Shown here: positions 3,531 through 7,128 of the stretch, piece by piece
Position numbering within the stretch: the first letter of the stretch is position 1
Layout of the letters: each line of letters opens with the position of its first letter
Source: a virus
Taxonomy: Duplodnaviria; Heunggongvirae; Uroviricota; Caudoviricetes
Direction: 5' to 3' (one strand)
Virus record (IMG/VR): IMGVR_UViG_648276651_000003
Location: 1 to 20,376 of that record
Length of the DNA: 20,376 nt
Notes under the pieces: model-generated
The model's input: only the letters and a program-made list of their open reading frames with translations
Databases searched by the model: none
What the model was told of the DNA's origin: nothing
Translations under genes and position numbers: made by a program

Positions 3531-3649
3531 TCAATAAACATGCAGATACCAACGGTTACTACGGCAATCAGCACCCAGCAGATCACATCCAAAATGGCGG
3601 CGAACCGACGGAGGGTGTATTTGCTGTAATTCTCAGGATCCATATTCAT
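3515..3649 (-). CDS. Small hydrophobic ORF (44 aa), putative membrane peptide
   Basis: Not in the ORF track; my translation MNMDPENYSKYTLRRFAAILDVICWVLIAVVTVGICMFIEWWTA; start overlaps the ParB-like stop as ATGA (3646-3649). Confidence 0.35.
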   Translation of the reverse strand: MNMDPENYSKYTLRRFAAILDVICWVLIAVVTVGICMFIEWWTA

Positions 3650-4431
3650 ACCGCCTCCCCAAGCACCCAGCGCAGAGCCTCGGCATATTCGCCACTGGCA
3701 TCTTCGAGTGCTTTTGTAATTTCCTTGCGTGATTTGATACGCGGCTTTGCTTCACCAAGAACCTGGCGCTGTCGCCGGGCTTTTTCATGGCCCGTGGTGC
3801 CGGCGGTCGCTGTCTCGATCTGCTTGACCTTCTCCCGTTGCTCTTCGGGTTTAAGCGATGCCAACTGACGCGCCTGGGTAACGGTAATTGTGCCAGCCTC
3901 TACCGCTTCCCGGACGGCCTGGGTAGCATCGAGAAGGGAGAGCGTTGCTCGAACGGTCTGAACGCTGCAGCCAAACAACACCGCAATGTCGTCCTCATCG
4001 AGCCCGCGGTCGAGCGCATCTGACATTTTTTTAGCCCGGCCAAGCGGCGTATCAGGTCGGCGAATTTCGTTTTCGCTTACCATGTATTTAGCCATCTGAT
4101 TTGCTGATCCGCGCTTAACGACCCCAGGAACAAGCAGTGGGGCTTTGCCCTCTTTCAAAAGAAGCTTATTTGCCTCCAGGGTATGTTTTACGCGCTGACG
4201 GCCTACAACTACGCAGGTGAGCCCCGTTTCAGGGTCTTTCCAGACGATGATAGGTTCCAGTACACCCAGCTCTTTGATGTTCAGAACCATTCCTTCGTCG
4301 ATAGGAAGGTGGACCCGTTCATCGTAAAGCGGGTGTGTTTTGTCGGTAACCAGATGCAGGCTTTCAGGTTCGAACGTTAAAACGTTCGTTTTGCCGCTGG
4401 CGCCGTATACAACCTTTGAGTCTTTAGCCAT
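3646..4431 (-). CDS. ParB-like nuclease-domain protein (ParB/sulfiredoxin fold)
   Basis: 261-aa product; N-terminal region LNIKELGVLEPIIVWKDPETGLTCVVVGRQRVKH resembles the ParB N-terminal domain, followed by an HTH-like segment; phage-borne ParB-like nucleases are a known family. Confidence 0.65.
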   Translation of the reverse strand: MAKDSKVVYGASGKTNVLTFEPESLHLVTDKTHPLYDERVHLPIDEGMVLNIKELGVLEPIIVWKDPETGLTCVVVGRQRVKHTLEANKLLLKEGKAPLLVPGVVKRGSANQMAKYMVSENEIRRPDTPLGRAKKMSDALDRGLDEDDIAVLFGCSVQTVRATLSLLDATQAVREAVEAGTITVTQARQLASLKPEEQREKVKQIETATAGTTGHEKARRQRQVLGEAKPRIKSRKEITKALEDASGEYAEALRWVLGEAV

Positions 4432-4730
4432 CAGAGAGCCTCCACGTTACGGAAGCTGGTAGGGCAAATTGCTTTCAAGTCGCGCATTGCTTCGAGGACA
4501 TGTAGATTTGTGCGATTCTTGGTGTGTCGCTCGGTCAGACGATCACACTCTTTCGCCCATGATTTGACCTCTGCGAGAAGGGCGTCACGTTCGGTGCGCG
4601 TCTGGCGCAGAGCTACATTCGAAACATCGAGGACGGTAGCCAGTTCCTTGATGATTGCTGCCTGTTCTGGTGGCATAGTTTTGGCTATTTCGTACGCCTG
4701 TTTAATCAGTTGTTTTGCTGTCTTAGCCAT
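4431..4730 (-). CDS. Hypothetical protein, first gene of the leftward early operon (99 aa from ATG 4730)
   Basis: ATG at 4730 with GGAGA RBS; the track ORF start at 4781 is a TTG extension; no arginine-rich N-like motif seen. Confidence 0.5.
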   Translation of the reverse strand: MAKTAKQLIKQAYEIAKTMPPEQAAIIKELATVLDVSNVALRQTRTERDALLAEVKSWAKECDRLTERHTKNRTNLHVLEAMRDLKAICPTSFRNVEAL

Positions 4731-5268
4731 CTTTTGTTCTCCATCTGACGCGCTGCAACGCGTAAATTTTGGGTGCAGCAACCCAACCCATGAGAGTGGG
4801 TGAATAGCTGGTTAAAATTTCTTGCTGATGGGGGACCGCCACTGCAATGGCGGTACGTTAGTTCTCCACACAACGAAAAGAGCACTGATACGATTAGCTA
4901 TTGCGTTCGGATCGGCGCACGGCTTGTGTGTTTGCCCGTTCACCGCCAATGCTCTCATCTGTTATGTCCCGGACTCTTCCCGGGCGTCACACCTTTTCGC
5001 CGCGCTGGTGGGGCGCACGTCGTGCCTGAACACTTAGCTTGCACATTCCGGTTGTTCTGAGAGGCATGGATAAAGGTAACTCTCTGGCGGCTAACGCTGC
5101 ATGTGCCATACAGCGGTTGCGAATATTGCCGTTCACAACTGGAAGCGCACTCCTTCAGTTACAAACCGATCCCCACCGGAAAGAAGGGGAATGCGCTTCC
5201 ATGTTGTGTTCTGTTCATCCTTGTCCGTAAGTTGCGTCATGTGCCGACGAATAGAAGATAATCATAAA

Positions 5269-5305
5269 TTGCGAGTAACGCAATAGTTAAGTGCGTAAAG
5301 CGCAA
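5269..5305. promoter_or_regulatory. Left operator region (OL-like): two 15-bp palindromes TTGCG-N5-CGCAA
   Basis: ttgcgagtaacgcaa (5269-5283) and gtgcgtaaagcgcaa (5291-5305) read directly; same half-site as the sites between cI and cro. Confidence 0.55.
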
Positions 5306-5315
5306 ATTTAAGGCG

Positions 5316-5340
5316 AAAAAAAAAGGCCTCGAAGGAGGCC
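5316..5340 (-). terminator. Intrinsic terminator downstream of cI (leftward)
   Basis: Hairpin ggcctc-gaag-gaggcc (5325-5340) followed on the minus strand by a T9 run (plus-strand A9 at 5316-5324). Confidence 0.6.
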
Positions 5341-5359
5341 TAGTTTATGATGATGAATG

Positions 5360-6055
5360 CTATCCATGCCGTTTAAAGGACTGAGACTGGCTTATTAAAA
5401 CCTTTCCGTAGATATAGAATCTGTGTTCATTCTCTTTAGTTATATTCCATTCTCTATAACGAGGGTTATCAGAGATGACTAGCAGTTGGTCTGGTATCAT
5501 CTGCAGGCGTTTAACATAAACTTTTCCATCAAAACCAAAGACGTAAATCCCATCCCCATCGAACTCATTGATAGTTACGTCCACAAAGATTAGGTCGCCA
5601 GGCTCAATCGTTGAGGCCATGCTATCACCGCGAACGTTGATGACCTTTACTCCAGATGGAGTCCTGCCACCAAACATTGCCAATGCCTGATCATTGCTGA
5701 ACTCGATAGCATGAATGACATCTATGACGTCACTACCGTGTATATGTCCTGCCCCGGCGCTTGCGCTCACATCAAGTACCTCGACTCTGTATACATCCAC
5801 ATCCTTTACGGGAGATGCATGTTTTTCACTGTTTATATGTACAGTAGTATCATTTTCGTCAGAGGTAAATAGGTCAGGTACACTTACGCTTAAAGCTTGA
5901 GCAAGTCGGTTAAGTGTCTGTTCTGAAAACTGCTTTTGTTTACCAGTTTCAAGCCTGGAAATATTGGCAGCATCAACGCCCACAGCTTCTGCAAGCTCTG
6001 CGATTTTAATGTTCTTCGCTAAGCGAAGTTGTCGTATGCGAGATCCTATTTTCAT
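5360..6055 (-). CDS. cI: CI-like prophage repressor (XRE-type HTH plus S24 LexA-like peptidase domain)
   Basis: N-terminal HTH (RIRQLRLAKNIKIAELAEAVGVDAANISRLETGK); C-terminal S24 signature with Ser in ...VRGDSMASTIEPGDLIFVD and Lys in ...VYVKRL; divergent from the cro-like gene. Confidence 0.85.
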   Translation of the reverse strand: MKIGSRIRQLRLAKNIKIAELAEAVGVDAANISRLETGKQKQFSEQTLNRLAQALSVSVPDLFTSDENDTTVHINSEKHASPVKDVDVYRVEVLDVSASAGAGHIHGSDVIDVIHAIEFSNDQALAMFGGRTPSGVKVINVRGDSMASTIEPGDLIFVDVTINEFDGDGIYVFGFDGKVYVKRLQMIPDQLLVISDNPRYREWNITKENEHRFYIYGKVLISQSQSFKRHG

Positions 6056-6075
6056 TCACTCATTACATGTTGTTT

Positions 6076-6138
6076 TTGCGTTTCGTGCAAAGCAACTTGC
6101 GCAATTCGCTAGCGTGGAATAACATGCGTAATACGCAA
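6076..6138. promoter_or_regulatory. Right operator region (OR-like) between cI and cro: three related 15-bp sites, with pRM/pR expected here
   Basis: ttgcgtttcgtgcaa (6076-6090), ttgcgcaattcgcta (6097-6111, imperfect), atgcgtaatacgcaa (6124-6138); tripartite layout between divergent repressor genes. Confidence 0.55.
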
Positions 6139-6152
6139 AAATAGGAGGCATT

Positions 6153-6395
6153 ATGCAATCACCATTAAGAAAATTGCGAAAATCGCATGGCATGACCTTA
6201 TTGCACGTTGCAACCGGGGTACAGGTAGATCCTGCAACGTTGAGCCGCATTGAAAGATGCGAGCAAGTCCCATCTGTCGAACTGGCGGAGAGATTAGCCA
6301 AGTTCTTTAGAGGAGAAATAAGCGAATTACATATTTTGTACCCAAGTCGCTATCAAACAGATGACGTACCAAGTGCAAATAATCGTACTGCTTAA
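6153..6395 (+). CDS. cro: Cro-like HTH repressor
   Basis: 80-aa product with XRE-type HTH (MTLLHVATGVQVDPATLSRIERCEQVPSVELAERLAKFF); AGGAGG RBS at 6143-6148; divergent from cI. Confidence 0.75.
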   Translation: MQSPLRKLRKSHGMTLLHVATGVQVDPATLSRIERCEQVPSVELAERLAKFFRGEISELHILYPSRYQTDDVPSANNRTA

Positions 6396-6429
6396 ACGGT
6401 TATTCGATAACTACAAAAGGAAAATCAAT

Positions 6430-6891
6430 ATGGTAGAGCCAAACCTCAAAGAAGCCGTCAAAGCGATGTGCAAAGCATATCCAGGTGGGCGCGAAGCAAT
6501 GGCTGGCGCACTGGGAATGACGGTGACGCAGTTTAACAACAACCTTTACGAGAAAAACGGCTGTCGTTTCTTCGAAGTCAGCGAGCTGGAAGCGATGGAA
6601 GACATTTCCAACACGTCGTTACTGGCTGATTACTTCGCTCGCCGCCGTGGGGCTCTGCTGGTGGATGTTCCGCACCTGGAAGAGCTGGATCGCGTGGACT
6701 TGTTCAGTCGGGCAATGCGTACCTCTGCCGCCAGGGGGCAGGTTGATCAGATTATCGAACAGGCGCTTGAAGATGGCGTTATTGAAAGGCACGAGGCCGA
6801 AGAAATCATGGTGCATCACCGCCGCCACCTGGCAGCTCGGGAAGAAGAGATTGCCGCAATTATCACGTTGTTTGCACGCAAAAAGAAGTGA
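6430..6891 (+). CDS. CII-like regulator by position (possibly YdaT-like)
   Basis: ATG at 6430 with AAAGGA RBS; 153-aa product immediately downstream of cro; family assignment is positional, not from recognised motifs. Confidence 0.4.
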   Translation: MVEPNLKEAVKAMCKAYPGGREAMAGALGMTVTQFNNNLYEKNGCRFFEVSELEAMEDISNTSLLADYFARRRGALLVDVPHLEELDRVDLFSRAMRTSAARGQVDQIIEQALEDGVIERHEAEEIMVHHRRHLAAREEEIAAIITLFARKKK

Positions 6892-6918
6892 CGCCAGCGA
6901 GTTGCAGCTCCTGGCGTC
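6880..6918 (-). terminator. Stem-loop oriented as a leftward intrinsic terminator (candidate 3' end of an oop-like antisense RNA)
   Basis: 8-bp stem gacgccag / ctggcgtc (6890-6918) with a T-rich tail only on the minus strand (plus-strand aaaaagaag at 6880-6888); no T-run on the plus strand. Confidence 0.35.
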
Positions 6919-7128
6919 GTGGCGTGTCGTTATCAGTGGAGATTACTAACGCATGAACAGTTTATCAACACAATACCGCAGGTCGCAACTTGTAGCGCGG
7001 CCAGTTCCTGGTGGAGCAGGGCCGGTGCAGTTCGTGTATGGGGTAAGAGTACCAGGCGGGTTCGAGCCTGTCTGCTACCAGTTTGCTCAGTGGGTGGTAG
7101 GGGACTTCAACGGCCAGGCGGAGAAAGT

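Follow-up and report, generated by a model that had tools for sequence, protein, structure and literature searches.

We analyzed the putative immunity region of a virus assigned to the Caudoviricetes, represented in IMG/VR by the record IMGVR_UViG_648276651_000003, of which positions 1 to 20,376 were considered (20,376 nucleotides (nt), hereafter the window). The region contains two divergent genes, cI and cro, separated by 97 bp, and six occurrences of a dyad-symmetric motif, TTGCG-N5-CGCAA, which are the subject of this analysis. The gene cI (5360..6055, minus strand, stop codon at 5360-5362) encodes a repressor of 231 amino acids (aa) with an N-terminal HTH_3 domain (Pfam, 5e-11) and a C-terminal Peptidase_S24 domain (1e-20). 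The N-terminal domain matches the 434 repressor/dh434 (E about 1e-5), and the C-terminal domain aligns to UmuD across the motifs GDSM and VKRL, i.e., the Ser/Lys dyad. The gene cro (6153..6395, plus strand) encodes a protein of 80 aa, also of the HTH_3 type (Pfam, 4e-10), for which searches of PDB returned generic XRE matches only. The recognition helices of the two proteins are alike, VDPATLSRIE in Cro (including Arg32) and VDAANISRLE in CI, and the S-R-x-E...Q signature of helix 3 is shared without exception by the CI and Cro proteins of the family described below, as seen in a Pfam-guided MAFFT alignment.

With Klebsiella phage 1 LV-2017 and the Kp487x prophages, the region shares 98.9% identity, and E. 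coli prophages located at tRNA-Ser/mtfA have it too. Its CI and Cro represent a distinct allele, 98-100% identical to the proteins of the same Klebsiella phage and prophages. The left operator region (OL), cI, the right operator region (OR), and cro move together as a single mosaic unit, which covers approximately positions 5133-6500 of the window, with matches starting at about 5133.

The motif occurs twice on the left side, downstream of cI, and three times in the spacer between cI and cro. The left sites are OL1 (5269..5283, TTGCGAGTAACGCAA), which has no mismatch to TTGCG-N5-CGCAA, and OL2 (5291..5305, GTGCGTAAAGCGCAA), which has one; their centers are 22 bp apart. The sites of the spacer are OR3 (6076..6090, TTGCGTTTCGTGCAA), OR2 (6097..6111, TTGCGCAATTCGCTA), and OR1 (6124..6138, ATGCGTAATACGCAA). 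These five sites had been listed in the initial annotation of the window and all are present where it placed them. It had further described the right-hand sites as graded in their imperfection, which is not seen in the mismatch counts, as each of the three has exactly one mismatch. Its count of two sites on the left holds, whereas its count of three on the right is incomplete, since a further conserved site, also with one mismatch, lies inside cro at codons 8-12 (6174..6188, TTGCGAAAATCGCAT). We searched by eye for a third OL site and found none, either between OL2 and the terminator of cI or to the left of OL1.

The number of these sites exceeds what is expected by chance. When at most one mismatch is allowed, the window contains 8 matches for an expectation of 1.40 +/- 1.15, and none of 100 shuffled windows reached this value. 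Six of the 8 matches are clustered in the 920 bp around cI and cro (5269-6188), and the remaining two (at 2229 and 13391) are as many as chance predicts. A similar frequency of the motif throughout the genome would have spoken against a role in immunity, but within the window the motif is clustered at cI/cro. There is no enrichment when two mismatches are allowed (16 matches for 15.1 expected), and therefore only the sites with at most one mismatch carry signal. Hence, the same dyad is repeated at the left and right control regions, in excess over chance.

The placement of the sites relative to transcription signals was studied with scans for terminators and promoter consensus sequences. The terminator that had been proposed between cI and OL was indeed found on the minus strand between the stop codon of cI and OL2 (5341..5315). 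It is a strong intrinsic terminator with a 7-bp stem including 5 G-C pairs and a 4-nt loop (5341..5324), followed by a T9 tail (5323..5315). The best consensus matches to the leftward promoter (pL), the rightward promoter (PR), and the promoter of repressor maintenance (PRM) have modest scores, and they overlap OL1/OL2, OR2/OR1, and OR3, respectively. The candidate pL (5290..5261, minus strand) has a -35 element TTAACT (5290..5285), a spacer of 18 bp, and a -10 element TATGAT (5266..5261), thus matching the consensus at 9 of 12 positions; transcription is predicted to start leftward at about 5254. OL1 fills the spacer of this promoter, and OL2 abuts its -35 element on the upstream side. The candidate PR (6097..6125, plus strand) has a -35 element TTGCGC (6097-6102), a spacer of 17 bp, and a -10 element TAACAT (6120-6125), with a predicted start at about 6132, inside OR1. 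The left half of OR2 doubles as this -35 element, and OR1 overlaps the last two bases of the -10 element plus the predicted start. The candidate PRM (6090..6062, minus strand) has a -35 element TTGCAC (6090..6085), a spacer of 17 bp, and a -10 element TGTAAT (6067..6062), with OR3 overlapping the -35 element and the spacer. Transcription from it would start at about 6055, on the A of the cI ATG. Together with the lack of a Shine-Dalgarno sequence ahead of cI in all family members examined, this suggests that the cI mRNA is leaderless, as in lambda. Across the family, the -10 (TAAYAT/TAATAT) and -35 (TTGCGC) elements of PR are conserved, and so is, for PRM, a block ATTACA/ATTGAA/ATTCAA. More generally, distant family members retain the key bases of the candidate hexamers.

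We then analyzed the conservation of the sites in a set of 83 close relatives, composed of 80 IMG/VR loci encoding a CI that is 85-100% identical to the one of the window, the window itself, and two annotated records. The six sites are found at fixed offsets from the start of cI: -785, -763, +21, +42, +69, and +119. In OL1, OR3, and OR1, all of the 30 half-site columns are invariant, whereas 13 of the 15 spacer columns are variable (Fisher p = 1.4e-9). The central 5 bp thus exist in 13 forms in OL1, 8 in OR3, and 9 in OR1. OL1 is perfect in every sequence of the set. The single deviations from the motif are conserved as well: a T at position 11 in OR3, and in OR1 an A at position 1 that coincides with the fifth base of the PR -10 element. 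OL2 is more variable, with one mismatch in 49 sequences, two in 33, and four in one, but its core is kept and the variation affects position 1. OR2 is the least secure of the operators. Its left half and spacer are invariant, these being also the -35 element of PR and its flank, whereas its right half is degenerate (one mismatch in 66 sequences, two in 14, and three in 3). At this same position, we observed that TTGCGCAA (6097-6104) is a perfect palindrome of 8 bp, which is kept as TTGCGCAA or TTGCGCAT in every family member examined, even in those lacking a 15-bp OR2. This short palindrome could be only the -35 element of PR or it could be a variant of operator with overlapping half-sites.

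More distant relatives were identified with tblastn using the N-terminal domain of CI. This domain is 59-67% identical over 86 aa in ST64B, SfII, mEp460, several Stx2 phages, phi1720a-02, phiNP, and Flotzy, and 41-52% identical in phages of Yersinia, Morganella, and Cronobacter and in Fels-1. Dyads of the type TTGCG-N5-CGCAA are found at -785, -763, +21, +69, and +119 in ST64B, SfII, phiNP, Flotzy, and 1720a-02, the second of these offsets being the equivalent of OL2; both the pair that follows the cI terminator and the site in cro are thus represented. The positions of OR3 (+21) and OR1 (+69) are filled in all family members examined. The resemblance of the window to ST64B, SfII, phi1720a-02, and phiNP extends to the spacer between cI and cro, which has an equal length (about 97-98 bp), to a CII of the 186/YmfL type, and to the recognition helix VDAANISRLETGKQ, which is identical in ST64B, SfII, and 1720a-02, and identical or nearly so in the others. 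The window differs from ST64B, SfII, and 1720a-02 in having a recognizable right half of OR2. Further away, the phages of Yersinia, Morganella, and Cronobacter use ATGCG-N5-CGCAT instead, and the dyad of Fels-1, present at OR and a second time after cI, is ATGTN-N5-NACAT. The half-site thus differs by repressor group, which means that the dyad changes with the type of repressor while the architecture stays.

To assess the association with CI in a larger dataset, we scanned IMG/VR for exact occurrences of the paired OL pattern TTGCG-N5-CGCAA-N7-9-TGCG-N5-CGCAA and obtained 86 stretches, of which 80 were analyzed as loci. The pattern lies 55-100 bp beyond the stop codon of a CI homolog in 71 of these loci, and the homologs are 67-100% identical to the CI of the window. 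Among the nine loci lacking a CI homolog, two (L132 and L109) are next to other XRE or S24-type genes and the others look like chance or repeat-like occurrences; most of the nine are in coding sequences or in G+C-rich repeats. Their inspection revealed none suggestive of a different function.

We searched the literature for the spelled-out motif and for work on ST64B and SfII, and found, in the library searched, no paper using the former and no characterization of operators for the latter. There is, however, relevant experimental work on two members of the family. The Cro of phi1720a-02 alone represses in vivo a reporter of the phiNP control region (lytic promoter) and blocks the induction of phiNP (bioRxiv 10.1101/2025.01.01.630987). 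In the same work, AlphaFold3 placed this Cro on a 20-bp semi-palindrome located 20-39 bp upstream of cI in phi1720a-02 and on one located 12 bp upstream of cro in phiNP, with Arg32 contacting guanines in both models. In our coordinates, these placements correspond to the positions of OR3 in phi1720a-02 and of OR1 in phiNP.

The site inside cro is centered at about +49 from the predicted start of PR and lies about 50 bp downstream of OR1. A match with at most one mismatch in a gene of 243 bp has a probability of about 0.02, given 1.4 matches per 20 kb. In the first 50 codons of cro, the third base is invariant in only 7 of the 48 degenerate codons, and two of these seven are exactly those specified by the motif (TTG at codon 8 and TCG at codon 11). 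The three third positions within the site that are unspecified, or that do not follow the consensus, all vary. We calculated that such a coincidence at codons 8 and 11 has a probability of about 0.02. In relatives whose CI is 67-77% identical, residue 11 of Cro is S, A, or T, but the codon is always xCG, and SfII keeps GTGCGTAAGGCGCAT despite the changes from L to V and from S to A. The replacement of H by Q at residue 12 in relatives results in a perfect TTGCG-N5-CGCAA, the best match of the right side; the site is perfect in relatives with a CI 67-72% identical and in many relatives it is the only perfect right-side site. Given that the codon positions specified by the motif are frozen and that the CG is kept through changes of residue, we treat this site as a probable operator, the fourth one on the right side.

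The explanation that we favor, with a probability of roughly 85%, is that the TTGCG-N5-CGCAA dyads serve as operators in a lambda-type lysis-lysogeny switch belonging to the ST64B-SfII-phi1720a-02-phiNP immunity family, in a lambdoid prophage of Klebsiella and E. coli. A lambda-like OL/OR switch had already been proposed for this locus, and the identities of the genes, the placement of the sites, their footprint, and their co-occurrence with CI in IMG/VR all support this reading. In such a switch, dimers of CI, with a 434-like helix-turn-helix and a LexA/UmuD-like self-cleaving domain, would bind each dyad with one recognition helix per TTGCG half-site. Occupation of OL1, between the -35 and -10 elements of pL, and of OL2, which abuts the -35, would shut the leftward early operon. 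Similarly, CI on OR1, over the -10 element and start of PR, and on OR2, over its -35 element, would shut cro and the rightward operon. Binding to OR3, over the -35 element of PRM, would provide negative autoregulation by CI and allow Cro to shut off cI, as Cro is expected to bind the same sites with its related recognition helix (S31-R32). The site within cro would probably act as an auxiliary operator, either as a roadblock or through cooperative or looped binding with OR. Induction would follow the SOS response via RecA-stimulated autocleavage of CI. The order in which the sites are filled, the positions of the promoters, the leaderless cI, the binding itself, and the role of the intragenic site are what we infer from the sequence data.

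Some observations weigh against this explanation. BLASTP gives no significant alignment between CI and Cro, and the likeness of their helices relies on the Pfam-guided MAFFT alignment. The promoters are matches to the consensus only (7 of 12 positions for PR), and promoter-like sites are not more numerous in the region than in shuffled sequences. The center of OR2 is at about -49 from the predicted start of PRM, versus -42 in lambda, and activation of PRM in the manner of lambda therefore cannot be assumed. The right half of OR2 shows little conservation and is missing from ST64B, SfII, and 1720a-02, and the left half of this site may be conserved simply because it is the -35 element of PR. 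Finally, CI and Cro always co-occur in the relatives, so the comparative data cannot tell which of the two proteins binds which site.

The points concerning OR2 are at the core of a more restrictive explanation, in which only OL1, OL2, OR3, and OR1 bind the repressor, TTGCGC at OR2 being a plausible -35 element of PR and the cro site a by-product of the conserved N-terminus of Cro. This site is indeed in a coding stretch and the first 12 codons of cro are generally well conserved. Yet, OR2 has only one mismatch in the window and in most close relatives (66 of 83). As for the cro site, synonymous positions that the motif specifies stay fixed next to others that vary, the CG is kept whether residue 11 is S, A, or T, and the change from H to Q produces perfect sites; a chance match is also improbable, as calculated above. 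We regard this explanation as rather unlikely.

Two other explanations would remove the role of CI and Cro at the sites. In the first, the palindromes would work at the RNA level, folding within the early transcripts into hairpins that serve as attenuators, terminators, or RNase sites, and would not be DNA bound by proteins. A terminator scan does report three of them as weak stem-loops of the minus strand followed by T-rich tails (5284..5268, 6137..6125, and 6187..6175), but the stems have only 5-6 bp, both arms are fixed, without compensatory changes, and three sites are upstream of or at the predicted starts and hence would not be fully transcribed from the promoter that they overlap. The identical stem sequence at all six sites suggests a single reader acting in trans, and the pattern of the palindromes tracks the family of the repressor. 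A search of Rfam over the whole window at gathering thresholds gave nothing, and under permissive settings the segment 4700-5360 returned nothing but chance matches below threshold, so that neither the palindromes nor the pL leader can be attributed to a known RNA family. We give almost no credit to a role as RNA. It is also very unlikely that the sites are bound by another regulator, even if the window encodes further DNA-binding proteins, namely a 186-type CII/YmfL (Phage_CP76, 6430-6891) and a ParB-like protein of the left operon (HTH_ParB, 3646-4431), and a host factor could be invoked as well. The mosaic unit in which the sites are kept (about 5133-6500) always has cI and cro, whereas the genes of the left operon vary and the ParB-like gene is outside the unit. 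Moreover, the half-site changes with the type of helix-turn-helix of CI/Cro, and the Cro of a family member suffices on its own to repress the reporter of the phiNP control region (bioRxiv 10.1101/2025.01.01.630987).

The initial annotation also held that the motif defines the immunity specificity of the prophage. This claim is not supported as stated, because phages with a CI only 67-77% identical to that of the window (ST64B, SfII, phiNP, Flotzy, and phi1720a-02) use the same half-sites and place them at the same offsets. Furthermore, phi1720a-02 lysogenizes a phiNP lysogen (bioRxiv 10.1101/2025.01.01.630987), which shows that a shared half-site does not equal a shared immunity. The 10 specified bases alone do not set an immunity group, and this calls for caution in grouping phages by motif alone. 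A half-site common to CI alleles that one would usually assign to separate immunity types helps to explain the published cross-regulation of co-resident prophages. We lean slightly toward a broader view, in which a fourth right-hand operator in cro is conserved at the DNA level and the shared half-sites make possible a cross-regulating network of co-resident prophages. Such a network could arise because CI alleles with as little as 67% identity have these half-sites in common, and the action of the phi1720a-02 Cro on phiNP is one case shown experimentally. CI or Cro bound within cro could act as a roadblock to PR transcripts, or could form a bridge with OR1/OR3, at a spacing of 48-50 bp, or with OL.

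Compared with lambda, the switch shares the divergent cI and cro, the multiple dyad operators overlapping candidates for PR, PRM, and pL, the terminator that separates the cI operon from OL, the apparently leaderless cI mRNA made from PRM, and a repressor that, judging by its domain content, is cleavable through its S24 domain. It differs by its operators, which have 15 bp (5+5+5) instead of 17 bp and another sequence, by the presence of two OL sites instead of three, by the extra site inside cro, and by the position of OR2 relative to PRM mentioned above. Its Cro is an all-helical HTH_3 protein that does not have the fold of lambda Cro, its CII is of the 186/YmfL type, and it has neither rexAB nor a recognizable N gene. 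Among solved structures, the 434 repressor is one of the closest by sequence to the N-terminal domain of CI (E about 1e-5 to 1e-4), and both systems have short half-sites around a non-contacted spacer, with CI and Cro reading (here by prediction) the same sites with related helices. However, the 434 operator has 14 bp (ACAA-N6-TTGT) and the residues of the recognition helix are QQSIEQ, to compare with AANISR here. An operator of the 434 type is thus ruled out by the 15-bp TTGCG-N5-CGCAA, and only the fold of the protein is common.

The intragenic site has a counterpart in the lactococcal phage TP901-1, where an operator of CI (OD) is inside the cro-like gene mor. In both cases, the first lytic gene would harbor a repressor site past the lytic promoter, in addition to the promoter-proximal operators, but the repressor families are unrelated, the spacing differs, and the role of the cro site is here a prediction. 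If this site functions with high affinity, the architecture departs from the three-site OR of lambda, and this would be a modest yet genuine deviation from the textbook layout. Otherwise, this is an ordinary textbook lysis-lysogeny switch that was previously unannotated, for which we now have an operator map with six sites, three candidate promoters, and one terminator. This type of immunity is common in prophages of Klebsiella pneumoniae and E. coli, and is also the one of Stx-converting phages and of Salmonella and Shigella serotype-converting phages.

The leader of the leftward operon has several features of its own. About 520 nt (4731-5260) separate the predicted start of pL from the first leftward open reading frame (ORF), which encodes 99 aa (4730..4434), and the Prokaryotic Genome Annotation Pipeline (PGAP) annotates no gene in the corresponding leader of an E. 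coli relative. The leader is mosaic, with breakpoints of homology near 5133 and 4974, and the segment from about 5130 to 4870 is missing in some relatives. It includes a long and nearly perfect hairpin at 5134-5207 (minus strand), with a stem of about 20 bp (GGAAGCGCAUUCC...GGAGUGCGCUUCC), located in the untranslated region about 50-120 nt downstream of the predicted start of pL. The 157-nt fold has an energy of -51 kcal/mol (z = -2.5); there is no U-run after the stem and no match to an Rfam family. The hairpin is kept in close relatives, while those with a CI 85-91% identical have another structured sequence instead. Further downstream, at 4968-4984 (minus strand), there is a boxB-like hairpin, CCCGG-GAAGAGU-CCGGG, the sole one in the window, whose loop we take to resemble the boxB of lambda nutL. 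Changes in its stem are compensatory in relatives (CCUCG...CGAGG and CAUCG...CGAGG) and the loop is kept as GAAGAG or GAAUAG. We considered antitermination of the lambda N/nut type and did not adopt it, as there is only one boxB-like hairpin, with no right-hand counterpart, and no N-like protein: none of the first leftward ORFs is rich in arginine, and no N family is detected by Pfam in the window.

Outside the switch, the gene at the position of cII (6430-6891, plus strand) encodes a 186-type CII (Pfam Phage_CP76; RefSeq YmfL family) and not a lambda-type CII. It is directly followed by an inverted repeat (6894-6922, plus strand, GACGCCAG-N13-CTGGCGTC), which opens with GTGACGCC, a string also present ahead of the boxB-like hairpin of the pL leader. 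Finally, the left operon encodes a protein with a ParB-type helix-turn-helix (HTH_ParB, 3646-4431, minus strand), and the right operon an adenine methyltransferase of the Dam type (D12 class, 8248-9057, plus strand) next to the replication gene; these two genes are accessory.

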